Source of the DNA: Candidatus Methanophagaceae archaeon
GTDB taxonomy: Archaea; Halobacteriota; Syntropharchaeia; Alkanophagales; Methanospirareceae
Assembly (NCBI GenBank): GCA_003194425.1
Contig: PQXB01000001.1
Coordinates: 640,444 to 672,443 of the forward strand
Direction: 5' to 3'
Length of the DNA: 32,000 bases
Position 1 is the first letter of the stretch; every line of letters begins with the position of its first letter. Made by a program: the position numbers and the translations under genes. Positions 1 to 32,000 of this stretch are shown piece by piece. The notes under the pieces were generated by a model, which did not search any database, was not told the origin of the DNA, and saw only the letters and a list, made by a program, of their open reading frames with translations.

Positions 1-647
1 GCGAAATTCCGCGTGAGAGCTTCTACCCCGTCCCTTTCGTTGTTCCTGTCTCGCGTTTTGTGGAGGCGTGGAAGGGCGTGCCGCAGTTGGAACTCTCGGT
101 TCACCCGCACTGCGGTGCAGCGACTTACGTCTTCGTTGAGGACGGGCGGTTCAAGCCGATAACCGAGTTCCTGGATGTTGAGGGTTTTATGGAATTCCTG
201 AAAGAAAGAGCGGACGAGATGAGCAGCAGCGGGTCGAAGGTGAGCAAATCAGGAGTGGACAAATCAAGAGTGGACAAATCAAGAGTGGACAAATCAAGAG
301 AGGGCAAATCAAGAGTGGGTAAAATAAAAGCAGTGGCAGGGCTGGTCTCGGCGTTAAGGAAATTTGTGGACAAGGCGAAGATGCCAGAGGGCGTTGACCC
401 TTTAGGTCTGCTTGCAGGTGTGCTGAAAATAGGGAGTCGGGAGGCTCTTGCAGAGTTTCACCGCAAAGCCCTCTTCATCGGTGCAATGCACTTTCAGGAC
501 GCCTACAACTTCGACTTGGAGCGTGTCAAGCGCTGTGGAATCCACTACGCCACGCCCGACCGCCGAATAATTCCGTTCTGCTCTTACAACGCAATTCACC
601 GACCCGCAGTGGAGAAGGCTTTTTCTGTGCCTTTAAACTTTAAATAA
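1..647 (+). CDS. C-terminal part of a radical-SAM-associated protein (COG1964 / tetraether-lipid-synthase-like C-terminal region); the 5' end lies outside the window
   Basis: Frame 3 is open from nt 3 to the TAA at 645-647. The track ORF 60..647 starts only at an internal GTG. The tail looks conserved: HPHCG ... MHFQDAYNFDLERVKRCGIHYATPDRRIIPFCSYN. The family was assigned from memory of this motif and was not searched. Confidence 0.55.
   Translation, partial: EIPRESFYPVPFVVPVSRFVEAWKGVPQLELSVHPHCGAATYVFVEDGRFKPITEFLDVEGFMEFLKERADEMSSSGSKVSKSGVDKSRVDKSRVDKSREGKSRVGKIKAVAGLVSALRKFVDKAKMPEGVDPLGLLAGVLKIGSREALAEFHRKALFIGAMHFQDAYNFDLERVKRCGIHYATPDRRIIPFCSYNAIHRPAVEKAFSVPLNFK
246..320 (+). repeat. 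5 x 15-bp in-frame tandem repeat encoding (K-S-x-V/E-D/G)n
   Basis: Units aaatcaggagtggac / aaatcaagagtggac (x2) / aaatcaagagagggc / aaatcaagagtgggt are contiguous. Confidence 0.95.
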
Positions 648-924: not shown

Positions 925-1374
925 ATGAGTGAAGAAATAGAGCGGATAAAGGAGCGGAAGATGCGGGAAATGGAAGAGGAAATGAAAGCAAGGGTAGAAG
1001 GGGAAAAGGGGAAAAAGGGACTGCGAGGGCAGAGGCAAGGGCAGGGTCCTAAAATCGACCACACGTTGACGCTGACTGACAACAGTTTTGTAGAGACGGT
1101 GCGGAAATATCCGCTGATTGTCGTGGACTGCTGGGCGCCCTGGTGCGGTCCCTGCAAAATGGTTGCACCAGTGTTAGAGGAGTTGGCGAAGGAGTACGCG
1201 GGCAGGGTGGTCTTTGGGAAGTTGAACGTGGACGAGAACCCGAGAGTGGCGACTGAATTTGGGATAATGGCGATTCCAACGCTCTTTATTTTTAAGAACG
1301 GCGAGCCTGTGGATGTCATTCAGGGAGCGTTACCGAAGCAGCATTTGGAAGCCCGCGTAAAAGAGTGGCTGTAA
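925..1374 (+). CDS. trxA: Thioredoxin with a roughly 45-aa charged N-terminal extension
   Basis: The WAPWCGPCK active site and a thioredoxin-fold C-terminal region are present. The N-terminus is E/K/R/G-rich and low complexity. Confidence 0.9.
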   Translation: MSEEIERIKERKMREMEEEMKARVEGEKGKKGLRGQRQGQGPKIDHTLTLTDNSFVETVRKYPLIVVDCWAPWCGPCKMVAPVLEELAKEYAGRVVFGKLNVDENPRVATEFGIMAIPTLFIFKNGEPVDVIQGALPKQHLEARVKEWL

Positions 1375-1429
1375 GTAAAACTTTTAAGAAGAGTTTTATT
1401 AAAAGAATTACACTCTTTCTTAGCACAGG

Positions 1430-1463
1430 TTCTTTCTTTAGAAAGAAAGTTTGACTAAAGAAA
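1430..1463 (+). terminator. A/T palindrome plus CTAAAGAAA box downstream of trx (putative terminator and/or promoter module)
   Basis: Inverted repeat ttctttct-tt-agaaagaa at 1430-1447 is followed by agtttgactaaagaaa at 1448-1463. A second box-like copy, agttttattaaaagaa, lies at about 1392-1407. AAAACTTTT follows the trx stop directly. Confidence 0.4.
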
Positions 1464-1479: not shown

Positions 1480-3069
1480 ATGCAGAGGGGAATAGAAATA
1501 GTGCGGAGGTTTGCGGATTTTGGATTTCAAGTCCAGCCAGAAGCGGTTGAACAAGTCTCTGAACTGCTGAGTCAGCAGTCCGACGCGGAAGCCGAGAGTC
1601 TGTTTGACCTCAACAAAATCGTAGAAGGCGTGAGTAGTTCGTTGGACCCCTCGGTCTTCGTGATTTCTAGCGAGCAGGTAGCCGAATTTCTGAAGAACAA
1701 CGGAACTGCTGCTGCCGCCGCTGACGCAGTGGTAGAGGCGCCGGAAATAATTAAGTCGTTCTCGGACGACGGAAAAGGGGTGGAGCAGAAGGATTTCTTA
1801 CCGCACTTCCTTGACCGCTACGAGCGGCTGAGCAGGCTGATAAAACGAAGGCTGAACTGCGGGCAGATAAAGTCTTTGAAACTGGGTCAGGGCAGAGAGC
1901 GGGGCAGAGGTCAGGGGTGGAGGGACGAGGAGGTCTCGGTAGTGGGAATGGTCTCCTCGGTGAACCGAACTGCGAAAGGAAACCTCCGCGTAGAATTAGA
2001 AGACCCTACAGGGCGTCTCCCAGTAATTCTGCAGCCTCAAGAGGAGGTAATTCCTGACGAAATAATCGGCGTTGCCGGTTCGTTCTCGTCTGACGGCGGA
2101 TTTCTCTTTGCGAGCCGAGTAGTGCGTCCTGATGTGCCTCTGCTTTCTCCTTCTGCGACCTCGCAGTCGGCGGCGTCTCTCAAATCCAAGCCACTCTACG
2201 CGGTCTTTATTTCGGATTTGCACGTGGGCAGCAAGACATTCTTGGAAGAGTCTTGGAACAGCTTCGTGCAGTGGTTGAGAGCGGAGGCGAAGAAAATGGG
2301 GATTGCGTACTTGGTCGTCGCGGGCGACCTCGTGGACGGAATAGGCGTCTACCCGGGTCAGGAGGAAGATTTGTCAATTTTGGACATCGAGGAGCAGTAC
2401 AAAACGGTGGCGGGGTATTTTCACGACCTGCCCTCGCATTTGCACGTTGTGGTCTCGCCTGGAAATCACGACGCGGTCCGCGGTGCCGAGCCACAACCGC
2501 CTCTGCCCGCCGACCTTCAGAGACTCTTCCCGAAGAACACCTCCTTCGTGAGCAGTCCTGCGTACGTAAAACTCGGCGGTAGCAGCAACGGCGGTAGCAG
2601 CAACGGAGGGAACAGCAACGGAGGGAACAGCAACGGCGGTAGCAGCAACGGAGGGAGCAGCAGCAACGGGGGGCAGTGTAGCAGGCTTGTCCTGATTTAC
2701 CACGGGCAGTCGTACGACGATTTTATCAACTCGGTCTCGCGGCTGAGTTACTCAAAGCCCGAGGAGGTGATGCAGGAAATGCTGAGGCGGCGGCACGTCG
2801 CCCCAATTTACGGTCGCTCGGTCTCGGTCGTCCCCGACGGGCAGGACTGCGAGGTAATTGACCTAGTTCCGGATATTTTTCACTGCGGGCACACGCACAC
2901 CGTCGGAGTCTCGAAATACCGAAATGTGCTGCTCATAAATTCCGGGACTTGGCAGTCGCAGACGCCGTACCAAGAGAAGAGGGACATTAAACCTGTGCCG
3001 GGCTGTGCAACGCTCGTGGAGCTGCGTGAAATGAAGGCGAGGGTGCTGGATTTTGAAAAATGCAGCTGA
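1480..3069 (+). CDS. polB: DNA polymerase II (PolD) small subunit DP1
   Basis: Calcineurin-like phosphoesterase motifs are present: ISDLHVGS, VAGDLVDG, PGNHD, HCGHTH. An OB-fold-like middle region is also present. Size is about 529 aa including a (GGSSN)n insert. Confidence 0.9.
   Translation: MQRGIEIVRRFADFGFQVQPEAVEQVSELLSQQSDAEAESLFDLNKIVEGVSSSLDPSVFVISSEQVAEFLKNNGTAAAAADAVVEAPEIIKSFSDDGKGVEQKDFLPHFLDRYERLSRLIKRRLNCGQIKSLKLGQGRERGRGQGWRDEEVSVVGMVSSVNRTAKGNLRVELEDPTGRLPVILQPQEEVIPDEIIGVAGSFSSDGGFLFASRVVRPDVPLLSPSATSQSAASLKSKPLYAVFISDLHVGSKTFLEESWNSFVQWLRAEAKKMGIAYLVVAGDLVDGIGVYPGQEEDLSILDIEEQYKTVAGYFHDLPSHLHVVVSPGNHDAVRGAEPQPPLPADLQRLFPKNTSFVSSPAYVKLGGSSNGGSSNGGNSNGGNSNGGSSNGGSSSNGGQCSRLVLIYHGQSYDDFINSVSRLSYSKPEEVMQEMLRRRHVAPIYGRSVSVVPDGQDCEVIDLVPDIFHCGHTHTVGVSKYRNVLLINSGTWQSQTPYQEKRDIKPVPGCATLVELREMKARVLDFEKCS
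2575..2667 (+). repeat. 6 x 15-bp (last unit 18-bp) in-frame tandem repeat encoding (G-G-S/N-S-N)n inside PolD DP1
   Basis: Units ggcggtagcagcaac x2, ggagggaacagcaac x2, ggcggtagcagcaac, ggagggagcagcagcaac. Confidence 0.95.
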
Positions 3070-4052
3070 AGAAAAAGACAAACAGAGAAACAAGAAAAAG
3101 GGAAAAAGGGAGAGGACTGAGGCTCTTTGCAGTGCGAAAGGTTCTAGGAGTGCGTGGCTGGCTGTGGGAGCGGGTTTACGGTGAGTACGAGCGGTTGCTG
3201 GAGAAGGAGATCCGGGGACAGGGGAAACCCCTGCCCGAGCACGTGGCGGTGATTATGGACGGAAACAGGCGGTACGCGCGGAAAATCGGGATTTCTACCG
3301 AAGAGGGCTACCTCTACGGCGCGGGGATAACCGAGCGTGTGATTGAGTGGTGCTTTGAGGTTGGGGTGAAGCAGCTCACGATTTACGCGTTCTCAATCGA
3401 GAACTTTTCAAGGTCGGACGAGGAGAAAGAGCGGCTGTTTGCGTTGATGCGGACCGAGTTCGAGAAAATAAGCCGAGACGAGCGAGTGCATAAAAACGGC
3501 GTGCAGGTGCGGGCGATCGGAAACCCCAGTCTGCTGCCGGACTCGGTGAGAGCCGCGATAAAAACCGCAGAAGACGCAACCAAGCAGTACGAGAAGTTCA
3601 GGCTCTTCATCGCCCTCGCCTACAGCGGGCGGATGGAAATTGTGGATTCAGTTCGAATAATCGCGAACCTTGTGAAACGAGGCGTGCTCTCCGCGGAAGG
3701 TGTAAATGAGGAGACGGTCTCTCGGCATTTGTACATCAGCGAGATACAGAACGGGTCTTCTACGTCGGCGCAGCCAGCACAGCCAGTGCAGCCAGTGCAG
3801 CCAGCACAGCAGAAAGGGGCGAAAGCCGCGGTGGACTTGATAATTCGAACCGGCGGCGAGCAGCGGCTGAGCAATTTCGTGCCTTGGCAGGCGTTGGGCA
3901 ACGAGTGTGCGGCTTACTTCTGCGCCCCGTTCTGGCCCGAGTTCCGAAAAATCGACCTTCTCCGAGCGGTGAGAACCTACCAAGAGCGGGAGGAGGAGAA
4001 ACGGAAACGCACCGCCTCGAGAACGCTAAAATTAATCAAAACCTTTTCCTAA
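3060..4052 (+). CDS. uppS: Undecaprenyl-diphosphate synthase (cis-prenyltransferase, archaeal UppS)
   Basis: Motifs HVAVIMDGNRRYA and DLIIRTGGEQRLSNF are present. The start is uncertain: ATG 3060 overlaps the polB stop by 10 nt, and the conserved region starts near aa 40. Confidence 0.88.
   Translation: MQLKKKTNRETRKREKGRGLRLFAVRKVLGVRGWLWERVYGEYERLLEKEIRGQGKPLPEHVAVIMDGNRRYARKIGISTEEGYLYGAGITERVIEWCFEVGVKQLTIYAFSIENFSRSDEEKERLFALMRTEFEKISRDERVHKNGVQVRAIGNPSLLPDSVRAAIKTAEDATKQYEKFRLFIALAYSGRMEIVDSVRIIANLVKRGVLSAEGVNEETVSRHLYISEIQNGSSTSAQPAQPVQPVQPAQQKGAKAAVDLIIRTGGEQRLSNFVPWQALGNECAAYFCAPFWPEFRKIDLLRAVRTYQEREEEKRKRTASRTLKLIKTFS
3771..3812 (+). repeat. 4 x 9-bp in-frame repeat encoding (A/V-Q-P)n in UppS
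   Basis: cagccagca cagccagtg cagccagtg cagccagca cagcag, immediately upstream of the conserved DLIIRTGGE block. Confidence 0.9.
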
Positions 4053-4092
4053 AACTTTTTCTTTTTAAGAAAAACTTTACTAAAAGAAATTT
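4051..4092 (+). terminator. 42-nt stop-associated module (hairpin plus CTTTACTAAAAGAAA box), copy 1
   Basis: aaaactttttctt-ttt-aagaaaaactttactaaaagaaatt begins inside the uppS TAA. The stem is 8 bp, tttttctt/aagaaaaa, and contains T5/T6 runs. It matches 31922-31963 at 39 of 42 nt. Confidence 0.45.
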
Positions 4093-4113
4093 ATATTTTT
4101 GATCAAACTTTTC

Positions 4114-4758
4114 CTAAAAGTTTGTTTTTAAAAGTTTGTTCGCTTTTTTGACGGCGTCGACGGCGTCCTTGCCGTAGGCGTCGGCGCCGATTTCAGCAGC
4201 GTACTCAGCAGTTACCGCACCCCCGCCAACCAAAATCTTCACTGCCACGCCCTCCTGCCTGAAATATTTTATAACCTCTGCCATATATTCTCTCGTCGTG
4301 GTCAGCAGTGCGGACATTGCGAGAATGTCGGCGTCGGTCTCACGAACCGCCTCCGCATATTTTTCTTTCGCAACGTCTGTCCCGAGGTCAACGACCTCAA
4401 AGCCGTCAGAGGAGAGCATAATAGTTACAACCTCCTTTCCAATGTCGTGCACATCGCCTTTGACCGTCCCGATGACGACCTTCCTTATTTTGTCTCTCTG
4501 ATTGTACTGCCCTTCTACCTTTAACCCCGCCTGCAGTAGTGGTTTAAGAATTTCCAACGCCTTCTTCGCATTCCAGCCAGCGACCATCAGTTCGGCGTCG
4601 AAATAAATCTCTTTGTATCCTGCCCCGATTTCTCGGAGACCGCTGGTCAGTTCGCCGATGATTTTATACGGACTCGTCCCGGAGTTCAGCTTCTCCTCGC
4701 AGAACGCCTCTATTTTCCTCTTCCTTACATCCAGCAGTGCGTCAAGAATTGAGTGCAT
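4114..4758 (-). CDS. Corrinoid (cobalamin)-binding protein, MtaC/MtbC/MtmC-like
   Basis: A B12-binding cap helix bundle is followed by a Rossmann domain with the DxHxxG signature (GDVHDIGK), SALLTTT and a GGG loop. Length 214 aa. Confidence 0.8.
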   Translation of the reverse strand: MHSILDALLDVRKRKIEAFCEEKLNSGTSPYKIIGELTSGLREIGAGYKEIYFDAELMVAGWNAKKALEILKPLLQAGLKVEGQYNQRDKIRKVVIGTVKGDVHDIGKEVVTIMLSSDGFEVVDLGTDVAKEKYAEAVRETDADILAMSALLTTTREYMAEVIKYFRQEGVAVKILVGGGAVTAEYAAEIGADAYGKDAVDAVKKANKLLKTNF

Positions 4759-4881
4759 TGAATAGAAAATGTGGTAGGATTATTTATCTTTTAAGGATAA
4801 GATAAAAACGGGCGGAAGGAAAGAAGGAAAGAAGGAAAGAAGGAAAAATGAAGGAAAAATGAAAACAAGAAGAGAAATCCT

Positions 4882-5142
4882 GTGCTCTCTGCTCCTGTGC
4901 CACCAGGCTACGACGAGCCGCTCGGTTTCACCTACACAATTCCCGACTGGGGTGCGACGGGGTTCGGAAATCTGTTTTTTGTGCAACTGCTTGACGAGGA
5001 GAGCGGTGGCGAGGTCTGGGATCTCGATGCAGCGTGCTGGGCTTACAGATCGGGCGGAGCAGGAGGAGAAGCGACGCAGACGGCAGTAGAAGAGGAAGAC
5101 ATTGCAAAAGAGATAAAAGAAGCAATAAAAAAGATAAAGTAG
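4882..5142 (+). CDS. Hypothetical small acidic protein (86 aa), GTG start, abutting the thiolase gene
   Basis: Its codon pattern resembles neighbouring genes. The TAG stop lies 3 nt before the thiolase ATG. I recognise no motif. The competing frames (4859..5089 + and 4780..5337 -) look non-protein-like. Confidence 0.45.
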   Translation: MLSAPVPPGYDEPLGFTYTIPDWGATGFGNLFFVQLLDEESGGEVWDLDAACWAYRSGGAGGEATQTAVEEEDIAKEIKEAIKKIK

Positions 5143-6480: not shown

Positions 6481-7542
6481 ATGAGAAGAATAGCGTTTTA
6501 CGGCAAGGGAGGGGTGGGGAAATCCACAGTCGGCACGAACATCGCAGCGGCGCTGGCAGAGCAGGGCCTCTCGGTGCTGGTGATTGGCTGCGACCCGAAG
6601 CACGACTGCACGAGAAACCTGCGAGGCGAGGTTGAAATTCCGACAATTCTCGACTTGTCGCGAGAGAAAGGCATCGAGCGGCTTGGTCTTGAGGGGCTCG
6701 TCGGCGAGGCAGGAGGAGCAGGAGGAGCAGGAGGAGCAGGAGGAGCAGGAGGAGCAGGAGGAGCAGAGGGAGGGAGCAGGGTCAGGCTCGACGAGGTCGT
6801 CTACAAGGGTTACAGGGGCGTCTTTTGCGCGGAGTGTGGCGGTCCGAGGCCGGGAATTGGCTGCGCTGGGAGGGGAGTCATCGTTGCGATCGAACTTCTT
6901 AAGCGGCTGAACGCGTTTGAGGAGTTGGAGCCGAAGCCGGAGGTGGTGATTTACGATGTGCCGGGGGATGTGGTCTGCGGCGGGTTTGCGATGCCGCTGC
7001 GGGGCAGTCTGGCCGACGAGGTTTTTGTCGTAACCTCCGCAGACTACCTCGCCCTCTACGCCGCAAACAACATCTGCCGCGGGATAAAAGAGTTCGCATC
7101 CAAAGGCGGAACTCCGTTGGGTGGCTTCGTCTACAATGTCAGGGGCGTGCTTGACGACGAGGCGGTGGTTCGCGGGTTTGCTGAACGGGTCGGGTCGCAG
7201 GTTCTTGGCTGCATTCCCAACGCACACCAAATCGCCGAAGCCGAAATTGAGGGCAGGACTGTGATTGAACACGCACCCGAGAGCGAGGTTGCCGACCTGT
7301 TCCGTGAGTTGGCGCTGCGGCTCTACAACAGCAGGGAAGTCTCTGTTCCCGAGCCGCTGCCCGCAGACGAAATGGTTAGGGTCGGGCAGGAAATCAGGAA
7401 GAGGGCGAGAGAGCGGTCGAGCGAGCGGTCGAGAGAGCGGTCGAGCGAGCGGTCGAGAGAGCGGACGAGAGAGCGGTCGAGCGAGCGGTCGAGCGGGAAG
7501 TGGCAGGACGAAAAAAGCGGAAAAAAATCGAAAATTATTTAA
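6481..7542 (+). CDS. NifH/BchL-family ATPase Fe-S protein (NflH-like; candidate CfbC)
   Basis: P-loop GKGGVGKST is present, together with the cluster cysteines in CAGRG and DVVCGGFAMP. The ATG directly follows the thiolase TAA. The gene carries two tandem-repeat inserts. Confidence 0.85.
   Translation: MRRIAFYGKGGVGKSTVGTNIAAALAEQGLSVLVIGCDPKHDCTRNLRGEVEIPTILDLSREKGIERLGLEGLVGEAGGAGGAGGAGGAGGAGGAEGGSRVRLDEVVYKGYRGVFCAECGGPRPGIGCAGRGVIVAIELLKRLNAFEELEPKPEVVIYDVPGDVVCGGFAMPLRGSLADEVFVVTSADYLALYAANNICRGIKEFASKGGTPLGGFVYNVRGVLDDEAVVRGFAERVGSQVLGCIPNAHQIAEAEIEGRTVIEHAPESEVADLFRELALRLYNSREVSVPEPLPADEMVRVGQEIRKRARERSSERSRERSSERSRERTRERSSERSSGKWQDEKSGKKSKII
6709..6771 (+). repeat. 7 x 9-bp in-frame repeat (gcaggagga) encoding (A-G-G)n in the NifH-like protein
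   Basis: Six perfect units plus one variant (gcagaggga). Confidence 0.95.
7411..7494 (+). repeat. 7 x 12-bp in-frame repeat encoding (E-R-S/T-S/R)n at the C-terminus of the NifH-like protein
   Basis: Units gagcggtcgagc and gagcggtcgaga alternate; one unit is gagcggacgaga. Confidence 0.95.
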
Positions 7543-11714: not shown

Positions 11715-13112
11715 ATGCGGATAGAAAGAGCGCGAGGTACGAGGGATTTTCTGCCTGCCGAGATGAGAAAGAGGCGGGAAATGGAAGACCTGATGCGTGA
11801 GACTGCGGAGCGGTGGGGCTACGGAGAGGTGAGGACGCCCACTTTTGAACTCGCTGAACTCTTTACGCTCAAGTCCGGCGAGGAGGTGCTGAAGGAAATG
11901 TACGAGTTCAGGGACAAAGGCGGGCGGCACTTGGCACTGCGACCCGAACTCACGGCGCCTGTGGTAAGAATGTTTGTGAACGAGTTAAAGATGTTGCCGA
12001 AGCCGACGAAGGTTTACTACTTCGGGAACTGCTTCAGGTACGAGGAGCCGCAGCGAGCCCGCTACCGCGAGTTCTGGCAGTTCGGCGCCGAAATCATCGG
12101 GTCCGACCGTCCCGAGGCTCAGGCGGAAATTATCGCTCTCACGTCGGAAATCCTGAAGTCGTTGGGCGTGAGCAAAGAGGCAGAACTTCAGGTGGGGCAG
12201 GTGGGCTTGCTGCGAGGACTACTGCGAGGGGCGGGGCTTGAAGAAGGCAAAATAAACAAGGTGATGCGGCTGTTAGACAAGGGCAAGAGAGAAGAGGTTG
12301 CAGAGGTTTTGAGCGAGGCTGGGGAGGCGGGAGAGAAGCAGGAGTTGGCAGGGGATTTGACGCACCTGACAGGTTTGAGAGGCGAGGAGGCTTTGAAGGA
12401 GGCACGCAGAATTGTCCTTTCAGAAAGCGGTAGTGCGAGCGGTAGTGCGAGCGGTAGTGCGAGTGGCAGTGCGTTGAAGGAGTTGGAGGAGTTAGAGGAG
12501 CTGTTGCGGCTCCTTGATTTTTACGAGGTCCGCTACACTTTAAATCTGGGAATTGCACGGGGCTTGGACTACTACACAGGAATGGTCTTTGAAATCTACG
12601 AAGCGGGAGGCAGGCAGGGCAAGTTGGGAGCACAGAGCCAAATCTGCGGTGGTGGCTCCTACCAGCTGGCGGCTCTCTTCGGTGGTGGCGAGGTCGCTTC
12701 TACGGGTTTTGCTTTCGGGTTTGACCGACTGGTGGAAATGTTCAGTCCAGAAAAGGAGGGCGAGGATTTAAGGAGGTCGAAGGTGGTGGTGGTGCCGATT
12801 CGCGAGAGAACAGCAACCGTAGGCGGAGACAGAGACGGCGAGGTGCTCAAAACCGCGATAAAAATAGCCTCCCGACTGAGAGAGTTCGTCCCCACTTACT
12901 TGGATGTGATGGGCAGGAATGTCGGTGCTCAAATGTCTTACGCCAATTCCACCGCCGCTTCGTTCGCCGTGCTCGTGGGCAGGGAAGAAGTGCGGGAAGG
13001 GAAAGTGACATTGAAAAATCTTGAGACAGGGGAGCAGGAGAGCAGGAGCGTTCGTCAGGCTATTTCCTTGCTGTCTTCTTCGCTGTCCTCGCCAAGTCGC
13101 AGAAATACTTAA
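11715..13112 (+). CDS. hisS: Histidine--tRNA ligase
   Basis: Class II motifs are present: LRPELTAPV and FRYEEPQRARYREFWQFG. A C-terminal anticodon-binding region is present. The last 53 nt overlap the convergent aldolase gene. Confidence 0.9.
   Translation: MRIERARGTRDFLPAEMRKRREMEDLMRETAERWGYGEVRTPTFELAELFTLKSGEEVLKEMYEFRDKGGRHLALRPELTAPVVRMFVNELKMLPKPTKVYYFGNCFRYEEPQRARYREFWQFGAEIIGSDRPEAQAEIIALTSEILKSLGVSKEAELQVGQVGLLRGLLRGAGLEEGKINKVMRLLDKGKREEVAEVLSEAGEAGEKQELAGDLTHLTGLRGEEALKEARRIVLSESGSASGSASGSASGSALKELEELEELLRLLDFYEVRYTLNLGIARGLDYYTGMVFEIYEAGGRQGKLGAQSQICGGGSYQLAALFGGGEVASTGFAFGFDRLVEMFSPEKEGEDLRRSKVVVVPIRERTATVGGDRDGEVLKTAIKIASRLREFVPTYLDVMGRNVGAQMSYANSTAASFAVLVGREEVREGKVTLKNLETGEQESRSVRQAISLLSSSLSSPSRRNT
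12426..12473 (+). repeat. 4 x 12-bp repeat encoding (S-G-S-A)4 in HisRS
   Basis: agcggtagtgcg x3, then agtggcagtgcg. Confidence 0.95.
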
Positions 13113-17162: not shown

Positions 17163-17192
17163 TTCTTTAAAAAGAAAGCTTTGCTAAAGAAA
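17163..17192 (+). terminator. A/T palindrome plus CTTTGCTAAAGAAA box downstream of pckG and upstream of porG
   Basis: ttcttt-aa-aaagaa at 17163-17176 is followed by aaagctttgctaaagaaa at 17175-17192. Confidence 0.4.
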
Positions 17193-17218: not shown

Positions 17219-17803
17219 ATGTTGGAAATTTGTGTTTACGGGCGGGGAGGGCAGGGCGGAGTTACGTTGGCGGAGTTGGTCGCACACGCAGCCATCTCGG
17301 AGGGCAAGCACGCCCAATCAATGCCCTCGTTCGGTCCCGAGCGGCGAGGAGCGCCGGTTCTCGCGTTCCTGCGTGTTAGCGGGCAAGAGGAGGGGCGGAT
17401 AAAAATACGGGCAGAGGTCGTAGAGCCGGACGTTTTGGTCGTTCTTGACCCGGGGTTACTTCAGGTCGGCAGTGTCGTCTCGCGTCTAAAGAAAAGCGGA
17501 ACAGCGGTGGTCAACACGAAGAAGACGCACGAGGCGATGAAATCCAAGTTTGAGGGAGAGGGAGGAGGGGGAGAGGGCGTGAAAAGAGTAGCAAAAGTAG
17601 CGACAGTGGACGCGATGGGAATTGCAAGGGCGGTTCTGGGACTGCCGATTGTAAATACGACGATGATTGGGGCGTTGGTGAAGGCGACGGGGGTCGTTGA
17701 GTTGGCGTCGCTGGAGGAGCCGATGCAGGAGCGGTTCGGGAAGGTTGCAGCGAAGAACGTTGCAGCGATGAAAAAGGCATACGAGGAGACGGAGGTGAGT
17801 TAA
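17219..17803 (+). CDS. porG: 2-oxoacid:ferredoxin oxidoreductase gamma subunit (Por/Vor type)
   Basis: N-terminal YGRGGQGGVT motif and gamma-subunit length. There is an EGEGGGGEG insert. Confidence 0.85.
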   Translation: MLEICVYGRGGQGGVTLAELVAHAAISEGKHAQSMPSFGPERRGAPVLAFLRVSGQEEGRIKIRAEVVEPDVLVVLDPGLLQVGSVVSRLKKSGTAVVNTKKTHEAMKSKFEGEGGGGEGVKRVAKVATVDAMGIARAVLGLPIVNTTMIGALVKATGVVELASLEEPMQERFGKVAAKNVAAMKKAYEETEVS

Positions 17804-17804
17804 A

Positions 17805-18095
17805 ATGAGTGGAGGAGAATTAGGTTGGAGGGATTTGGAGGTTGGTTTCGTGGTTACCGAGCCTGGCAACGCTGCGGCGTACAAGACTGGCGACTGGCGG
17901 TCGGAGAAGCCGGTGCGAGAGAATGAGAAGTGCATAAAATGCGGGATTTGTTTCATTTACTGCCCCGAGGCGTGCATTGAGGAGACCGAGGACGGGTTTT
18001 TTGAGGCGAACCTGTTTTACTGTAAGGGCTGTGGGATTTGTGCGCACGAGTGCCCGAGAGCGGTGATAACGATGGTTGAGGAGGCGGAGGAGTAA
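17805..18095 (+). CDS. porD: 2-oxoacid:ferredoxin oxidoreductase delta subunit (2x[4Fe-4S] ferredoxin-like)
   Basis: Two cluster motifs are present: CIKCGICFIYCP and CKGCGICAHECP. It starts 1 nt after the porG stop. Confidence 0.85.
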   Translation: MSGGELGWRDLEVGFVVTEPGNAAAYKTGDWRSEKPVRENEKCIKCGICFIYCPEACIEETEDGFFEANLFYCKGCGICAHECPRAVITMVEEAEE

Positions 18096-18124
18096 GAGAA
18101 AGCGGAAATTTGAGGAGGGTTAAG

Positions 18125-18340
18125 ATGGGTGGGCGGGGTTTAAAAGAAGAGGAGGCGAAAAGAGTGGAAGTCTCGAACGAGGACACCTACGAGAGCGTGC
18201 TGGAGAGACTGGGGATAAATCCGGTGGAGGTGGTCGTGCTTCGCGACGGCAAGCCGGTGCCGGAGGACGAGAAAGTAGTTGTTAGTGGGAAAAAGGGAGA
18301 GGTAAAAATAAAGATCGTCAGAATTGTGTCCGGCGGGTAA
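18125..18340 (+). CDS. ThiS/MoaD/SAMP-like beta-grasp protein with a C-terminal Gly-Gly
   Basis: The 71-aa product ends ...IVRIVSGG then stop. The internal pattern LGINPVEVVVLRDGKPV...V is typical of the family. gaggaggg lies 7 nt upstream of ATG 18125; the track ORF starts at TTG 18110. Confidence 0.55.
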   Translation: MGGRGLKEEEAKRVEVSNEDTYESVLERLGINPVEVVVLRDGKPVPEDEKVVVSGKKGEVKIKIVRIVSGG

Positions 18341-18373
18341 AAAGTAAAGAAAAGAAGAAAGGGGAGGGATAAA

Positions 18374-19894
18374 ATGGGGGGCAACCTTTTGAAGGGCTTG
18401 GCGGTCTTGGGTGTGGTTCTGTTCTTAGCGATGCTCGTAAGTTGCGTGGTGCCTTGTGTTGCGGTTAATGGAGAATTGGGTGAGAAGAAAATGAAGGAGC
18501 CGTCAAGCACTCTGACGCTGACCGTCCTGAACGAGACGACCGCATTCGGAGAGTGGCGCATTTTTTATCCCTGCGAGCACGCAGGGGTGGGAGCGGGACA
18601 CCTGCGGTTTGCACACGAACTGCTTGAAAATAACAGAGAGGGCGTTGAGAAGGGAATGGAAGACCTCTTCTTGCAGGATGTTGAGGCGGTACAAATCGCA
18701 AAAGAGGACGAGACCCTCGTCGTTCGATTCAATCTTAAAGCAGACTACACAAACGGTTTTGCGACAGGAAAGTACAAATCCAGCTACGAACTTGCCGAAT
18801 ATTCGCCGACTTTTGTAAGTGTTTTAAAGATTGTGCTGCCTCAAGAAAAGAGAGTAGTAAGCGTGAACCCAGGACCAAACGAGTTCAAAGTGAGTGAGAA
18901 GGAGAATGAACTGGTGTATTTTGACTACAATTGGATTTACCCGTTGGAAATCGGCTACGCGGAAAAATCGGGTGCTGGTGTGCCTAAAATCGGAAAAGAG
19001 TGGAAGTTGCCGAAACTCCCTTCTTCTGCCGATATTCTTGGTGGAGAGGAAGAGGAGGGTTTTAGAGAAATACCTGGAAATGATTATTCACGCTTTGCGG
19101 GACCTGGTCTTTGGGTTGGCACTGGGACAGACTCGGTTCCTGGGACTTCTAAAACCGCAAAGGGGGTTGCAAACGAGTACAAGCCGTGGTTGTATTTGTG
19201 GAGTTCAATCCTTGATCAATGCCCGGATGCTGTCTTTTATCGTGTTGTCAAAGGATATGATGTTTATGCGGGATTTGATGCATTTTTGATACAATATTTT
19301 GCATATTGGGAGTGCCAAGATTGTGTCCCTGGGCACGACCACGATTATGAGCCAATCTTCGTCTGGGTGAAAAATATTGGGAAAAGACCTTACAGGGTGG
19401 CTTACGACCACTGGGATTTGTCAAATTGCCACACGCACGAGATACACAGAAACAAATCTTATCTCTGGTCTTCTACCTCAGACGGCGTGTATGAAGTCCC
19501 TGAAGGCACGCACACAAACGAGAAGGCTTACTACCCCTTCGGGAACGCGTCTTACAACGGCGATGATTTTGGCGCCGAGTTAATTCTTCATACTCTTCCT
19601 GCCTCGCTCCAAAACAACTGGGACGTGAATCATGTCAGGCTCGGAATAACAAACTGCTGGCACACTTTCGATACTGATATCACTGGTTCAAACTGTGGCG
19701 ATTATTCATTAGCGCCTCTAAACGATAATGAATTGATAACAGCATATCGTCTCGAACTGGATGAGATTGACATAATTTGGTGTCTCTGCGGTATCGAGGC
19801 GTTTAAATACGATGTCTCAGACCTTTTGAGTGGGTCTTCTGGGAAGACCACTACCACAGAGACCACGAATTCCCCTCGCTCTCTGCGGCGATAA
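18374..19894 (+). CDS. Secreted/anchored protein of unknown function with an NLP/Vps62-like GHDHDYE motif; probably the N-terminal part of one larger gene
   Basis: N-terminal hydrophobic signal or anchor LAVLGVVLFLAMLVSC. The body is W/H/C/D-rich. The frame ends in a low-complexity tail while frame 1 is already open from 19807. Confidence 0.6.
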   Translation: MGGNLLKGLAVLGVVLFLAMLVSCVVPCVAVNGELGEKKMKEPSSTLTLTVLNETTAFGEWRIFYPCEHAGVGAGHLRFAHELLENNREGVEKGMEDLFLQDVEAVQIAKEDETLVVRFNLKADYTNGFATGKYKSSYELAEYSPTFVSVLKIVLPQEKRVVSVNPGPNEFKVSEKENELVYFDYNWIYPLEIGYAEKSGAGVPKIGKEWKLPKLPSSADILGGEEEEGFREIPGNDYSRFAGPGLWVGTGTDSVPGTSKTAKGVANEYKPWLYLWSSILDQCPDAVFYRVVKGYDVYAGFDAFLIQYFAYWECQDCVPGHDHDYEPIFVWVKNIGKRPYRVAYDHWDLSNCHTHEIHRNKSYLWSSTSDGVYEVPEGTHTNEKAYYPFGNASYNGDDFGAELILHTLPASLQNNWDVNHVRLGITNCWHTFDTDITGSNCGDYSLAPLNDNELITAYRLELDEIDIIWCLCGIEAFKYDVSDLLSGSSGKTTTTETTNSPRSLRR

Positions 19895-19905
19895 ATTCGG
19901 CGGTA

Positions 19906-22629: not shown

Positions 22630-22640
22630 GTTTTTCTTAT

Positions 22641-22658
22641 CTTTTCTAAAAAGAAAAG
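22641..22658 (+). terminator. A/T hairpin downstream of the surface-protein gene
   Basis: cttttct-aaaa-agaaaag, a 7-bp stem preceded by a tttttctt run. Confidence 0.4.
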
Positions 22659-22671
22659 GTGTAAAGAGAAA

Positions 22672-24108: not shown

Positions 24109-24110
24109 GA

Positions 24111-24130
24111 AAATTTAGTAAAGCTTTCTC
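24111..24130 (-). terminator. CTTTACTAAA box on the minus strand directly after the aconitase stop
   Basis: The reverse complement reads gagaaagctttactaaattt, nearly identical to gaaagctttgctaaag at 17174-17189. Confidence 0.35.
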
Positions 24131-24132
24131 TG

Positions 24133-26106
24133 TCAAAGGAAAGTTTGCAGCAAGCAGCCTGCGAGGACAATTTGGCGTTGCCTCTCGGTGAGTTCGCAGC
24201 CGACCTCGAACTCCAGCCCTCTCGTGCAGTCCCTCACACTCAGCTTCTCGTTCCTTGCTAACCGCTCTCTTACACTCGGAATCTCAAGTTCGTCCCCCTC
24301 GTGCAGTGCCTCGTAGTCGGCTGCCGAGCGGAAGGAGAGCGGTAGAATTCCGAAATTGACGAGGTTCGCAGCGTGAATTCGCTCGAACGACTTCGCAAGC
24401 ACCGCCTTCACACCCAAGAAAGCGGGGCACAACGCCGCGTGTTCTCTTGACGAGCCCTGACCGTAGCTCTCGCCTGCTACGATGAAGTTGTGCTTCCCTG
24501 CGTTCTTGTTGCCGAGTGCGCGTTTGTAGAAGTCGCTGTCCAGCGGTTCAAAGACGAACTCGGCGTATTTCGGGATGTTTGACCTGTATTTCATTCTGCT
24601 GCCCGCGGGCATAATGTGGTCGGTCGTGATTTTGTCGCCGACCTTGATTGCGACCGCTCCAGAGAGGGTCTCGGGCAGCGGCGAAGTCGTGGGTGGCTCG
24701 CCGATGTTCGGTCCTCTGTAAATCTGAACAGCGTTGGAAATGCTGGTGTTGGAAGGCTGCAGAATCAGGCTGTCGTCGGTGTAAAATCTCTCGGGCATCT
24801 TTACCTGCGGGCACTCAATTCCCAAGTCCAAACTTCGCGGGTCGGTAATTTTCCCGACGACGGCTGTCGCCGCAGCGGTCTCCGGGCTGACCAAGAAGAC
24901 CTTCGCGGTCTTTGTCCCAGACCGCCCCTCAAAGTTCCGGTTGCTCGTCCGCACCGAGACCGCGTCCGTTGCGGGTGCGTAGCAGTTCCCGATGCAGAAC
25001 CCGCAAGAGCACTCTGCGAGCCTCGCGCCCGCGGAGACGAGGTCTGCCAACGCCCCGTTCCGGCAAATTTCCGCAAGCACCTGCCTTGACCCCGGAGCGA
25101 CCACAAGTTCCACTTCAGGACTCACTTTCCGCCCCCGCAAAATCCGTGCAACGGTCGTCAGGTCTTTGTAGGACGAGTTGGTGCAACTCCCGATGCAGAC
25201 CTGACTTACTTCAACCCCCTCCGCCTCCAACTCCCGCACTGTTTTGACATTTCCGGGGCTGTGCGGGCACGCAGCGAGCGGAACAACCTCGCTCAAGTCA
25301 ATTTCGACCACCGCCTCGTACTCGGATTCGGCGCCCTCGTCCGCCCTCAGCTCAACCCAGTCCGCCGCCCGACCTTGAGCGGTCAGGAACTCCAGCGTCC
25401 TCTCGTCGCTTGGAAAGACCGAGGTAGTAACGCCGCACTCCGCACCCATATTTGCGACCGTCGCACGCTCGGGGACTGAGAGCGTCTTCACTCCCTCACC
25501 ACCGTACTCAAAGACGCAGCCTACGTTCCCCTTCGTCCCGAACCGCTCGAGAACCGTCAGTGCAACGTCCTTCGCAGTCGCCCAAGCCCGCAACGCCCCG
25601 CTCAACTCCACCCGCACCACTCTCGGGCACGCGAGGTAGAACGGACCGCCAGCCAACGCAACTGCAACGTCCAGCCCACCCGCACCGACCGCGAACATTC
25701 CCAGCCCCCCGCAAGTCGGCGTGTGGCTGTCCGAACCCAGCAGTGTCTTCCCTGGCTTCCCGAACCGCTCGAGGTGGACTTGGTGGCAAATCCCGTTCCC
25801 TGCCTTCGAGAAGAGCAGCCCGTACTTCGCCGCAACGCTCCGCAAGTAGCGGTGGTCGTCCGCGTTCTCGAACCCCGCCTGCACGGTGTTGTGGTCAACG
25901 TAACTCACCGAGAGCTCGGTCTTCACACGCTCAAGTTCAACGCCCAACGCCACCAAAGCCTCGAACTGCAAGTAAGCCAGCGTCCCTGTTGCGTCCTGCG
26001 TCAAGGTCTGGTCGATTTTAATCGCAACCTCCTCTCTCGGCTCCAGTCCTGACCCGCCCTCTACTAAATGCCCCTCCAAAATCTTCCGCGTTATGCTTTT
26101 TCGCAT
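24133..26106 (-). CDS. Aconitate hydratase, short fused type of about 650 aa (Aquifex/archaeal-type putative aconitase)
   Basis: Aconitase-family motifs GSDSHT, IGSCTNSS and the swivel-domain GESYGQGSSREHAA occur in one polypeptide. No repeat insert. Confidence 0.85.
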   Translation of the reverse strand: MRKSITRKILEGHLVEGGSGLEPREEVAIKIDQTLTQDATGTLAYLQFEALVALGVELERVKTELSVSYVDHNTVQAGFENADDHRYLRSVAAKYGLLFSKAGNGICHQVHLERFGKPGKTLLGSDSHTPTCGGLGMFAVGAGGLDVAVALAGGPFYLACPRVVRVELSGALRAWATAKDVALTVLERFGTKGNVGCVFEYGGEGVKTLSVPERATVANMGAECGVTTSVFPSDERTLEFLTAQGRAADWVELRADEGAESEYEAVVEIDLSEVVPLAACPHSPGNVKTVRELEAEGVEVSQVCIGSCTNSSYKDLTTVARILRGRKVSPEVELVVAPGSRQVLAEICRNGALADLVSAGARLAECSCGFCIGNCYAPATDAVSVRTSNRNFEGRSGTKTAKVFLVSPETAAATAVVGKITDPRSLDLGIECPQVKMPERFYTDDSLILQPSNTSISNAVQIYRGPNIGEPPTTSPLPETLSGAVAIKVGDKITTDHIMPAGSRMKYRSNIPKYAEFVFEPLDSDFYKRALGNKNAGKHNFIVAGESYGQGSSREHAALCPAFLGVKAVLAKSFERIHAANLVNFGILPLSFRSAADYEALHEGDELEIPSVRERLARNEKLSVRDCTRGLEFEVGCELTERQRQIVLAGCLLQTFL

Positions 26107-27301: not shown

Positions 27302-28210
27302 CTACCGCACGATTTTTGTTATGTTTATTTCGACAATGTCCTCCGCACCCCTGCTCTTCAACTTCGGAATCAAAATATTCACCTCCCCCTTGCTCACCAC
27401 CGTCTCCACCGCGTAGTAGTTCTGCTCCTGCCCCTGCTCGTAAAGTTTGGAGACGGTCGGCTTCTTCATCGCCGGCAGCACCGAGACCACCTCTCTCAAC
27501 CGCCCCTCCGCGACATTCATCGTGAGCAACACCTTTCCCCGCGCTTCTACAACGCCAGAGAGCAGTGTCCGAATCTCCTCAATCTCCCGCCTCTTCTCTG
27601 CGTCGCCGTGCCACGAATTCTTGTTCGCGATTAATTTCGTGGACGACTCCAGAATCGTCTCAATTATCCGCCAGTTGTTCTTCTGCAGCGTCTCGCCTGT
27701 CTCGGTCAGCTCGACAATTCCGTCCATCATATCTTTCGCCTCGGTAGCGCCGTAGGAGAAAAATATCTGCACAGGAATTCCGAGTTGATCGAAGAAGGAT
27801 TTTGTGAGGTTCGGGTACTCGGTGCTGATTTTGCTCTGTGGCGGTAGGTCTTTTGCGGATTTTATCTCTTTACCTCCTCGGTCGTCGGCTCGGTCTTCCT
27901 GCACCGCGAGGACGATTTTCACGCTGCCTTCTTTCTCCGCGATTTTGCTGTAACTCAGGTCTGCCACCTCAACCACCTCCGCTCCCCGCTCCTCTACCCA
28001 GTCCTTACCAGTTATCCCAAGATCAAAATACCCCTGCTCAACGAACTCTGGAATCTCCTGCGGTCGCAAAATCTTCACCTTCCCCACCCGAGGGTCGTCA
28101 ATTCTCGGGCTGTACTCACGGCTTGTTACTTTTACTTCCAAGTCCGCCTGCTTGAGCAAGCGCAGGGTCTGGGCTTCTAAACTGCCTTTCGGAATTGCTA
28201 CGCTTAACAT
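27302..28210 (-). CDS. hisG: ATP phosphoribosyltransferase (long form with C-terminal regulatory domain)
   Basis: The N-terminus LSVAIPKGSLEAQTLRLLKQADL and a length of 302 aa fit; collinear HisG-like blocks are present. Confidence 0.88.
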   Translation of the reverse strand: MLSVAIPKGSLEAQTLRLLKQADLEVKVTSREYSPRIDDPRVGKVKILRPQEIPEFVEQGYFDLGITGKDWVEERGAEVVEVADLSYSKIAEKEGSVKIVLAVQEDRADDRGGKEIKSAKDLPPQSKISTEYPNLTKSFFDQLGIPVQIFFSYGATEAKDMMDGIVELTETGETLQKNNWRIIETILESSTKLIANKNSWHGDAEKRREIEEIRTLLSGVVEARGKVLLTMNVAEGRLREVVSVLPAMKKPTVSKLYEQGQEQNYYAVETVVSKGEVNILIPKLKSRGAEDIVEINITKIVR

Positions 28211-29615: not shown

Positions 29616-29657
29616 AATTATTTCTTTTGTAAGGTTTACTTTTGTAAAGAAAAGTTT

Positions 29658-31141: not shown

Positions 31142-31936
31142 ATGAGAGAGGAGTGGCCGGAGAGGGGGGAGTTGGTAGTTTGCACGGCGGAAGCGCTTAG
31201 GCCGTTTGGGGTCTTCGTTAGGCTTGAGGAGTACGAGGGGAAAGAGGGGTTGATTCACATTTCTGAGGTTACCACGGGCTGGGTGAGGCATTTGCGGGAC
31301 TACGTGCGGGAGGGGCAGAAGGTGGTCTGCAAGGTGCTGCAGGTGGACGCGCAGCGGGGGCACATTGACCTCTCGCTAAAGAAGGTGAAAGAGGGGCAGA
31401 AAAAGGAGCGGATAACAGAATGGAAGCAGGACAAGAAAGCCGAGAAGTGGCTCTCGCTCGCTCTTTCTGACACGGCACCCAGCAGCACAGAAGAGTTCAA
31501 GAGGATCGAGGCGAAGTTGTCGGAGGCTTACGGGAGTTTGTACAACGCGTTTGAGGAGGTTGTAAAGACTGGCAAAGAAGCACTGACCTGTCTTGGCGTA
31601 GCGGAGGAGTACGCAGAGGCGGTTCACGAGGTTGCGGTCGCAAATATGAAACTGCCTTCGGTGCAGATTCTCGGGTTTTTGGAACTGACCTGTCCTCTGC
31701 CCGACGGTGTAGAGAAGATAAAAGAAGCGTTGAGGGCTGCAGAGGCAGTAAAGGGGGCAAAGAAAGAGGCTGAGTTGGAGTGTCTCTACCTTGGGGCGCC
31801 GAAGTACAAAATGCGTGTCGTCGCGTCAGACTACAAGACCGCGGAAAGCGTTTTAAGTGCCGCGTCGGAGGCTGCTCTTGAAGTGATTAAGAAAAATAGC
31901 GGCTGGGGGCGGTTCTACCGCAAAACTTTTTCTTAA
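31142..31936 (+). CDS. eif2a: Translation initiation factor 2 subunit alpha (aIF2-alpha)
   Basis: The N-terminal S1 domain is GELVVCTAEALRPFGVFVRLEEYEGKEGLIHISEV, followed by helical and alpha-beta domains. It sits downstream of L44e/S27e. Confidence 0.9.
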   Translation: MREEWPERGELVVCTAEALRPFGVFVRLEEYEGKEGLIHISEVTTGWVRHLRDYVREGQKVVCKVLQVDAQRGHIDLSLKKVKEGQKKERITEWKQDKKAEKWLSLALSDTAPSSTEEFKRIEAKLSEAYGSLYNAFEEVVKTGKEALTCLGVAEEYAEAVHEVAVANMKLPSVQILGFLELTCPLPDGVEKIKEALRAAEAVKGAKKEAELECLYLGAPKYKMRVVASDYKTAESVLSAASEAALEVIKKNSGWGRFYRKTFS

Positions 31937-31963
31937 AAAGAAAAACTTTACTAAAAGAAATTG
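31922..31963 (+). terminator. 42-nt stop-associated module, copy 2
   Basis: aaaactttttctt-aaa-aagaaaaactttactaaaagaaatt spans the eIF2a TAA. It is identical to 4051-4092 except for the 3-nt loop (aaa versus ttt). A further hairpin ctttct-ttttg-agaaag lies at 31978-31994. Confidence 0.45.
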
Positions 31964-32000
31964 CGAAAATGGTAAAACTTTCTTTTTGAGAAAGGTTTCT

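Follow-up and report, generated by a model that had tools for sequence, protein, structure and literature searches.

A 41-nucleotide (nt) palindromic module recurs near-identically at the ends of unrelated genes in a Candidatus Methanophagaceae archaeon. It is described here from a 32,000-nt stretch of contig PQXB01000001.1 (positions 640,444 to 672,443, forward strand; assembly GCA_003194425.1), hereafter the window. Two copies lie in the window, S1 (4051-4091) at the stop codon of UppS and S2 (31922-31962) at that of eIF2α, and two further loci, S3 and S4, are known from other contigs. The module is read, with a probability of roughly 55%, as a small lineage-specific family of copy-and-paste palindromic inserts that would carry a terminator and a promoter, these functions being deduced from the letters of the DNA. 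On the plus strand it is composed of a TAA stop codon, AAC, T5-C-T5, AAGAAAAA, CTTTACTAAAAG and AAA.

S1 and S2 are identical at 38 of 41 positions, with the three loop bases as the sole differences. S1 reads AAAACTTTTTCTT-TTT-AAGAAAAACTTTACTAAAAGAAATT and S2 has AAA in place of TTT; perfect 8-bp arms, TTTTTCTT/AAGAAAAA, enclose the loop in both, and the 20 nt formed by AAGAAAAA and CTTTACTAAAAG recur unchanged in S2 at 31938-31957. A first-pass annotation of this DNA had located both stretches correctly and was right, across these 41 nt, that only the bases between the 8-bp arms differ, but its count of 39 shared positions in 42 was one too high: base 42 is t in one copy and g in the other, giving 38 of 42. 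A pattern search of the window with any loop allowed recovers S1 and S2 and no other place, and 100 shuffles of the whole window contained no match. The window has a G+C content of 53%, its spacers are very A/T-rich, and the module stems contain 11% G+C. Under a stricter null, an order-2 Markov model of 55 A/T-rich islands (3.2 kb), the best 41-mer pair in 40 simulations matched at 25-29 positions, versus the 38 observed. Coincidental or convergent likeness between generic A/T-rich archaeal terminators and promoters is, by these figures, next to impossible. The local intergenic DNA is indeed built of few words (AAACTTT, AAAGAAA, CTTTCTT) and weak look-alikes are common, but composition-matched simulations do not exceed 29 of 41 matches, identity runs over 40-85 nt across four loci with sharp borders, and relatives have empty sites. 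On these three grounds the chance, low-complexity and convergence readings were rejected, and the comparisons show the copies to be of common descent, not convergent.

The searches for further copies yielded the two extra loci, and all four loci lie at gene borders. A metagenome scan with the pattern TTTTTNTTNNNAAGAAAAACTTTANTAAAAG returned 10 contigs, all on S1-S4, and strain contigs confirm each locus. At S1, between UppS and the B12-binding protein gene, the same sequence is present in 12 sequences (the window and strain contigs, of which two have it in duplicate). S2 lies between eIF2α and Nop10. S3 lies between an HVO_2753-type zinc-finger gene and rpS8e, where the module begins at the stop codon (ccgTAAAAC…) and the S8e ATG follows 36 nt past …CTAAAAG, and S4 lies between tRNA-Arg and ValRS, inverted relative to both. 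S1/S2 and S2/S3 share 40-41 nt and S1/S4 share ~85 nt; copies occur in both orientations relative to genes. As the 10 hits fall on only four loci, the strict family is suggested to be nearly saturated at about 4-5 near-identical copies, a soft estimate given that the scan was incomplete and missed contig L004, which carries a copy. The earlier proposal of a discrete repeated element, beyond a generic oligo-T terminator, is thus borne out by sharp borders, near-identical copies at at least four unrelated loci and tandem duplicates. S1-S3 begin at gene ends, and S4 is inverted relative to its flanking genes.

Beyond these strict copies, an nhmmer profile detected no further strong copy in ~100 kb of source-lineage DNA. 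It did detect weaker relatives of like layout, in which T-rich and A-rich arms enclose a short loop and CTTT(A/G)(A)C(T/C)AAA(A)G follows. Three of them precede genes (PolD, POR and eIF2α), one follows thioredoxin, one separates aldehyde dehydrogenase from aconitase, and one lies in inverted orientation in the PriS-Gins51 spacer (Table 1). Hairpins in the A/T islands of the window are modestly enriched (5 observed versus 1.8 ± 1.3 expected). In the PriS-Gins51 spacer (window 29616-29657; L030 3775-3816; L031 8833-8874), TTTT(A)GTAAAG and a hairpin are kept across lineages of anaerobic methanotrophic archaea group 1 (ANME-1); the hairpin has a 7-bp stem, a 3-5-nt loop and compensatory stem changes, and stands 21-23 nt before the Gins51 ATG. 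The motif of this spacer may be the ancestral source of the module. A BLAST search of the 91-nt S1 region against plasmids and phages, with the low-complexity filter on, gave no match, and Rfam returned only sub-threshold chance matches of ~20 bits against cut-offs of 55-100, with no family that fits. A viral origin was rejected, as the four matches to the 19-nt core, on A/T-rich phage contigs, lack the left arm and are attributed to chance; they served as a control.

Insertion is documented by gene pairs that are closely spaced in relatives. The host is an uncultured, methane-oxidizing archaeon of the Methanophagales (ANME-1). The closest eIF2α homologues of other lineages are 60-67% identical, and those that are named belong to Methanophagales/ANME-1; Methanophagales is also the label of the identical S8e protein, and mcrA is present on one contig of the source species. 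In three ANME-1 relatives with 82-85% identical S8e, only 3-8 nt (ccgTAAaaaATG) separate the zinc-finger stop from the S8e ATG. The corresponding gap in the source lineage is 70 nt, and consists of the module and a 26-nt tail with a GAGGG box; the insert is flanked by A-runs on both sides, which fits either a 4-nt duplication or microhomology. Relatives with 63-67% identical eIF2α have a 31-nt eIF2α-Nop10 spacer (gcaaactttctttaaaagtaaaaaaggttttATG) without the module, and this spacer matches the second hairpin of the window's 80-nt spacer. Since relatives lack the module at both S3 and S2, the insertions are lineage-specific, and the comparison shows that the module was inserted into two gene pairs that nearly abut in relatives, zinc-finger/rpS8e and eIF2α/Nop10. 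The relatives' eIF2α ends in …Y-R-N-L-S-stop (aatctttcttag), and the T-rich left arm of S2 accordingly seems to derive from this older gene end or to have recombined with it. Among the strain contigs of S1-S4 no empty site was found within the species, and no donor of the 26-nt tail was found in the window or in the strain and relative loci examined.

The loop difference itself is traced to a documented mutational mechanism. In the window and eight other contigs, S2 reads cgcAAAACTTTTTCTTAAAAAGAAAAACTTTA; in strains L025 and L028 it reads cgcTAAAGTTTTTCTTTTTAAGAAAAACTTTA, where the loop is TTT and the arms pair perfectly over 13 bp. Of the 14 bases that make up the module's left half, 5 distinguish the two forms, versus 6 of 980 in the flanking DNA. 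When the left arm and loop of the window form are replaced by the reverse complement of its loop and right arm, the predicted sequence is exactly that of L025 and L028, and the reverse derivation, from the L025 form to the window form, needs several events. This reconstruction shows that a single template switch accounts for all five differences and that the loop does flip, by the mechanism described for quasipalindrome or short-range template-switch mutation (PMC7202029; PMC9435742). By the same reasoning the TTT/AAA difference of S1 and S2 is read as the footprint of one switch within the perfect 8-bp arms. Inversion of the whole 27-nt palindrome was rejected as its cause, as the two flanking C's would then be G's and only the 8+3+8 core fits. 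The suggestion that the palindrome core can flip has held up, as S2 strains carry either loop and the TTT form is a templated rewrite of the AAA form. The switch at S2 removes the loop-borne stop and itself creates a TAA four codons upstream, and eIF2α consequently stays closed. As in other quasipalindrome template switching, clustered changes perfect an imperfect inverted repeat and invert its loop; that process is a mutational mechanism rather than an element class, and the present case is a natural archaeal population polymorphism that also moves a stop codon.

These observations bear on the other half of that suggestion, that the stem is under selection. In an alignment of 12 family members the 13-pair geometry is kept, and five pairs are changed on both sides; in relatives, for instance, CTT/AAG has become TGC/GCA ahead of Gins51. 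Covariation scores 0.256, versus 0.155 for shuffles and at most 0.124 for slid registers, and a C·C mismatch is present just outside the core in 11 of the 12 sequences. Covariation is thus seen, but template switching can yield it without selection. Because such switching restores complementarity by itself, the palindrome is regarded as at least partly the mutational product of a T-rich terminator lying beside an A-rich BRE (transcription factor B recognition element), and its pairing as no proof that an RNA or DNA structure is selected.

The terminator-promoter reading assigns a role to each half of the module. The T5-C-T5 half would act as a double U-tract terminator for the gene that ends at the left border. 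This tract, with its two runs of at least four U, is present at S1, S3, S4 and the L025 form of S2, and at all of these but S4 it comes immediately after a stop codon. In Methanococcus, at least two U4-tracts before the 3' end characterize efficient terminators, which are bound by aCPSF1 and do not need a hairpin (PMC8716108). The module resembles these in its two runs of at least four U just past a stop codon and would likewise require no hairpin, and differs in that ordinary U-tract terminators are neither sequence-identical between loci nor fused to a complementary A-rich arm. Several other genes of the window have two T4 tracts after the stop. T4 and T5 tracts on the minus strand would let the module terminate convergent genes as well.

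In the other half, the A-rich arm AAGAAAAA followed by CTTTACTAAAAG would form the BRE and TATA box of a promoter for the downstream gene, with transcription predicted to start ~22 nt downstream. The motif CTTT(A/G)(A)C(T/C)AAA(A)G, after a purine-rich run, precedes the start codon by 19-20 nt at PolD, 29 nt at POR, 36 nt at S8e and 59 nt at Nop10, and the spacing at PolD fits a leaderless start. Archaeal promoters have an A/T-rich 8-nt box behind a purine-rich BRE, some 22-27 nt before the transcription start, and the distances of 19-59 nt to the start codons are compatible with such a promoter. Relative to the downstream ATG, S2 occupies -95 to -55 and S3 -70 to -30, and the Shine-Dalgarno-like GAGGG between the S3 motif and the S8e ATG was brought by the insert. 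By this mechanism the module would split old operons, and S8e-AspRS and Nop10-PAC2 would gain promoters of their own. Template switching, and not selection for a hairpin in the RNA, is probably what keeps the T-rich and A-rich halves exactly complementary, and perhaps also what made them so. S8e-AspRS and Nop10 are essential and were once co-transcribed with the gene before them, and a terminator placed ahead of them would presumably be harmful unless a promoter was supplied with it; the expected harm to S8e-AspRS and Nop10-PAC2 favours a cassette with both functions. The earlier idea of a combined terminator and promoter thus agrees with the anatomy and the insertion sites, but two of the four copies have no plus-strand gene.

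Several points weigh against this reading. The copies without a plus-strand gene to drive are S1, between convergent genes, and S4, beside a convergent tRNA, and both at S4 and in the PriS-Gins51 spacer the element runs opposite to its flanking genes. Direction is ambiguous because of the quasi-palindromic TATA-like box, and CTTTACTAAAAG has a C in its middle and is unlike the TTTAAAA/TTTATA-type boxes before most other genes here. In the window form of S2 the T5 tract falls within the last codons of eIF2α, an awkward position for a terminator. As for the route of transfer, there are no terminal inverted repeats beyond the palindrome, and the only possible duplication is that of the 4-nt A-run at S3. 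The family size comes from an incomplete scan, and both putative roles are deduced from resemblance in very A/T-rich DNA.

The principal rival is a selfish or neutral palindromic mini-repeat of the REP (repetitive extragenic palindromic), MITE (miniature inverted-repeat transposable element) or Correia-like kind with no regulatory role, which would have spread in A/T-rich spacers by recombination or template switching, its T-tracts and TATA-likeness being by-products of composition. This alternative is unlikely on the whole but carries appreciable weight. The module is found in both orientations, also between convergent genes where a promoter would be needless; its copy number is polymorphic, and one contig may be a recombinant; and gene ends merely read into the repeats (KTFS*, KTNF*, KSF*). 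Point changes in the TATA-like box are tolerated in L003 and L029: the box of S2 is changed from CTTTAC to CATTTC in L003 (10805-10812; two changes), and TTTACT is changed to TTTAAT in L029. A neutral repeat does not, however, account for two insertions right upstream of essential, formerly coupled genes, where T5-C-T5 should carry a cost, nor for the motif and hairpin geometry kept before Gins51 in relatives with compensatory stem changes, and a selfish element that proliferates would be expected to form a much larger family.

The Gins51 spacer also raises the prospect that the module functions leftward, having been copied from a promoter of the leaderless type that stands before that gene, in which TATA-like CTTTTAGTAAAG and a 23-nt hairpin precede the start. 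It would then drive ValRS at S4, and at S1-S3 it would either give RNAs antisense to the 3'-terminal parts of the UppS, eIF2α and zinc-finger genes or be a dead copy. Read as its reverse complement, the module has ~80% identity with the PriS-Gins51 spacer, TTTT(A)GTAAAG lies 21-23 nt ahead of the Gins51 ATG both in the source lineage and in its relatives L030 and L031, the left border of the module coincides exactly with the would-be start codon, and this direction faces ValRS at S4. Such a role is nonetheless quite improbable, given that the sequence upstream of the box (AAATTTC) is not BRE-like, unlike the AAGAAAAA of the rightward direction, that transcription from three of the four strong copies would enter the 3' ends of genes in the antisense direction, and that S8e and Nop10 would be left without a promoter after insertion.

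A further possibility treats the palindrome as the target of a dimeric DNA-binding protein (an operator or a site for a nucleoid-associated protein), or as an RNA hairpin in a 3' untranslated region or 5' leader that acts in stability or ribosomal-protein feedback, in a small translation regulon with S8e, Nop10, eIF2α and ValRS as members. An inverted repeat of 8-13 bp with a fixed 3-nt spacer is kept across the family with five covarying pairs, the neighbouring genes are enriched for translation functions, the RNA folds somewhat better than shuffles (z = -1.4 to -3.8), and a near-identical stretch is present in a Micrarchaeota 16S rRNA insertion. Against this, the A/U-only 8-bp stems are weak (about -12 to -16 kcal/mol for contexts of 86-96 nt at 37 °C), the covariation is expected from template switching by itself, the loop is either TTT or AAA with a conserved C·C mismatch outside the core, UppS/B12 and POR/PolD fall outside any single regulon, and no Rfam family matches. 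A regulon of this kind is scarcely probable. A stable RNA hairpin terminator of the bacterial type was likewise judged unlikely, owing to the A/U-only stems and modest fold z-scores, and readings as a dif, ORB (origin recognition box) or att site were set aside, since the element is multi-copy, A/T-only and unlike their consensus sequences.

The Micrarchaeota sequence was recovered when 185,579 species genomes were scanned with the 23-mer core, a collection from which the source species itself was not recovered, and two Micrarchaeota metagenome-assembled genomes were the only matches. There an apical loop of the 16S rRNA is extended by a 54-nt insertion formed by the sequence GCGAAACTTTTTCTTTTTAGGAAAAAAAGAAAAACTTTACTAAAAGAAAAAGCGCG (GCGAA|GGC, position ~670 of the Rfam small-subunit model), on contigs DATDZF010000004.1 and JBFYLP010000005.1 (L008 4503-4560 and L007 7945-7996). 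Its match to the S3 copy spans 42 nt, is interrupted by a single 8-nt indel, and takes in both the left arm and the C·C mismatch. The chance of such a 42-nt match is roughly estimated at 0.001-0.01. The CTTTTTCTTT/AAAGAAAAAG arms are reused in another insertion of the same rRNA, and this reuse, along with hairpin constraint, makes the match less surprising; it may be a coincidence or may reflect shared origin. If homologous, the module would represent a ~45-nt archaeal hairpin insert that enters diverse targets and lineages, ANME-1 operons and Micrarchaeota 16S rRNA among them, and its spread may rely on templated (template-switch) insertion into A-rich DNA instead of a transposase. This is improbable, but would amount to a cross-phylum miniature mobile element of a kind undescribed in archaea.

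The closest known kinds of element are putative mobile promoters and small repeats of the REP and Correia type, and the module fully matches the definition of neither. Putative mobile promoters (Matus-Garcia, Nijveen, van Passel 2012; PMC3575422) are likewise highly similar non-coding stretches beside unrelated genes of one genome, without a tie to known mobile elements, and are proposed to rewire transcription. In that survey they were at least 50 nt long with at least 80% identity, lay at -150 to -50 from start codons, and were not shared between Archaea and Bacteria (PMC3575422). The module differs in its length of 41 nt (85 nt for S1/S4), in starting at stop codons, in its terminator-like half, and in that half of its copies have no downstream gene; S1/S2 and S2/S3 share under 50 nt, and the ~85 nt of S1/S4 are not upstream of genes in both cases. 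REP sequences, BIMEs (bacterial interspersed mosaic elements) and REPINs are similarly short, imperfect intergenic palindromes that often follow stop codons in both orientations, occur as clusters or tandem arrays, serve as rearrangement sites and are linked to effects on termination or mRNA ends (PMC3184786). The module shares with them a short imperfect palindrome near gene 3' ends. Unlike REPs, which are G+C-rich with a GTAG-type head, have tens to hundreds of copies in a genome and depend on RAYT transposases for their movement (PMC3184786), it has A/T-only stems (in the 8-bp core), about 4-5 strict copies (four loci in the incomplete scan) and an archaeal host, and is not known to be linked to a transposase. 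With Correia elements and MITEs (cited in PMC3575422 and PMC3184786) it has in common the form of a small non-autonomous insert with promoter- and terminator-like signals that may extend or truncate reading frames, a possible 4-nt A-run duplication at S3, and empty sites in ANME-1 relatives at S3 and S2. MITEs are, in contrast, ~100-400 bp long with terminal inverted repeats and clear target-site duplications, whereas the inverted repeat of the 41-65-nt module is central. Translated inserts are a further point of comparison. Rickettsia palindromic elements are palindromic repeats that join reading frames, their in-frame inserts being translated as extra peptide segments; the module supplies only the last 3-4 codons and the stop. 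On present evidence it remains a modest, lineage-restricted repeat family with a putative regulatory function.

Should the terminator-promoter reading hold, this family would be a clear example from Archaea of a preassembled terminator and promoter copied together to new sites, where they split the zinc-finger/S8e and eIF2α/Nop10 operons, with the insertions documented by empty sites in relatives. S2 furthermore provides a case of natural, population-level quasipalindrome template switching in an archaeon, in which a single step flips the loop, perfects the stem and moves a stop codon. For the annotation of ANME-1 genomes, the module explains recurrent contig breaks at this spot, variable spacers and, in part only, shared tails such as K-T-F-S. 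As a genetic part, it is also a candidate for a strong promoter and terminator in an organism that lacks a genetic system.

The S1 region is unstable among strains. A 65-nt unit composed of the module, TTTATATTTTTGATC and half of a neighbouring hairpin, here termed B, is tandemly duplicated in three of them (Table 1); Tandem Repeats Finder gives a period of 65, 2.2 copies and 97% matches, and the unit is bounded by the direct repeat AAAC(C)TTTTCCTAAAA. Several strain contigs stop inside the module. In one contig (L019/L029; Ga0116200_10022240, 2952-3036), the B12 side of S1 is joined to the ValRS side of S4 through the ~85-nt repeat, with private substitutions in the module; the join may be a recombinant, and is less likely an artefact of assembly. 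Further copies of the B hairpin flank the module at S4.

In-frame tandem repeats of 9-15 nt are present within genes of the window (225-329, 2559-2677, 6707-6772, 7376-7519, 12414-12473), and orthologs vary in length among strains, for example 513-546 amino acids (aa) for the PolD small subunit and 334-353 aa for a ParA/ArsA-like protein. The in-gene repeats suggest frequent replication slippage and fit a slippage-prone background.

Gene assignments in the window were confirmed by Pfam and are collected in Table 1 with the coordinates of the module and its relatives. The Nop10 start, 81 nt past the eIF2α stop, was taken from contigs with identical eIF2α, and no tRNA or tmRNA was found in the window.

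Table 1. Positions of the module, related hairpins and relevant genes in the window (strand given as + or -; a point marks features without strand).
Feature	Position	Strand	Remarks
S1 module copy	4051..4091	+	between convergent UppS and B12-binding protein genes
S2 module copy	31922..31962	+	at eIF2α stop; 55 nt before Nop10 start codon (just outside the window)
S1 perfect palindrome core	4056..4074	.	arms 4056-4063 and 4067-4074, loop TTT 4064-4066
S2 perfect palindrome core	31927..31945	.	loop AAA 31935-31937
T5-C-T5, candidate double U-tract terminator	4056..4066	+	just 3' of UppS stop codon (4050-4052)
A-rich arm AAGAAAAA (BRE-like) then CTTTACTAAAAG (TATA-like) in S1	4067..4086	+	
65-nt unit (module, TTTATATTTTTGATC and half of B)	4048..4112	+	tandem duplicate in strains L010, L011, L017
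Degenerate B hairpin word (atcaaaaccttttccTAAaac)	4036..4055	+	encodes UppS K-T-F-S-stop; left direct repeat of 65-nt unit
B hairpin caaacttttCCTaaaagtttg, 9-bp arms	4104..4124	.	loop region supplies B12-protein stop codon 4114-4116 (minus strand)
Second hairpin of the eIF2α-Nop10 spacer (aaactttctttttgagaaaggttt)	31972..32000	+	matches ancestral 31-nt spacer of relatives; presumed Nop10 leader
Weak relative: hairpin ttctttcTTTAgaaagaa then aGTTTGACTAAAG	1430..1459	+	upstream of PolD small-subunit ATG (1480)
Weak relative: TTCTTTaaaaAGAAAG then CTTTGCTAAAG	17163..17191	+	upstream of POR gamma ATG (17219)
Degenerate copy (TAAgTAAAACTTTTAAGAAGAGTTTTATTAAAAGAATT)	1372..1410	+	begins at thioredoxin stop codon
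Weak relative (GAGAAAGCTTTACTAAATTTTCC)	24109..24146	-	24-nt spacer of convergent aldehyde dehydrogenase/aconitase genes
Inverted family member, ~80% similar	29616..29657	-	fills PriS-Gins51 spacer
UppS	3060-4052	+	Pfam
B12-binding protein	4114-4758	-	Pfam
eIF2α	31142-31936		Pfam
PolD small subunit	1480-3069		Pfam
POR gamma	17219-17803		Pfam
PriS	28152-29615		Pfam
Gins51	29658-30413		Pfam

Both UppS and eIF2α end in K-T-F-S, which the first-pass annotation had ascribed to the module reaching into the coding sequence. This applies to eIF2α, whose K-T-F-S-stop lies inside the module and whose stop TAA (31934-31936) takes two bases of the AAA loop; in strains L025 and L028, with the earlier TAA, the tail is without K-T-F-S. 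It does not apply to UppS, where the overlap of the stop codon with the module is limited to the first two module bases and the K-T-F-S codons (4038-4049) are a related hairpin word, aaaaccttttccTAA, just upstream.

Similar short C-terminal tails occur in unrelated proteins of the window, namely KTFS* in UppS (4038-4052), KTNF* in the B12 protein (4114-4140, minus strand), SKSF* in aldehyde dehydrogenase (24094-24108), KLSF* in aconitase (24133-24147, minus strand) and KTFS* in eIF2α (31922-31936). The last codons of these proteins run into hairpin words of the AAAAC/GTTTT type, and the loop of the B hairpin gives stop codons on both strands.

Other variable segments were noted elsewhere in the window. 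Where the B12-binding protein gene diverges from an open reading frame (ORF) of 86 aa, the shared promoter region (4741-4884) contains 8-nt repeats (ggaaagaa), and a ~34-nt unit in it (ataagataaaaacgggcggaaggaaaga) is doubled in L010 and L014 and single in the window. A 4.4-kb segment (18338-22705) that is absent from strains L001-L006 holds an ORF of 506 aa without a Pfam match and a 907-aa surface protein of the NosD/beta-helix/PKD type. The adjoining Fer4-SAMP2 segment (17792-18338) has 90% identity to other strains, versus 99% elsewhere.

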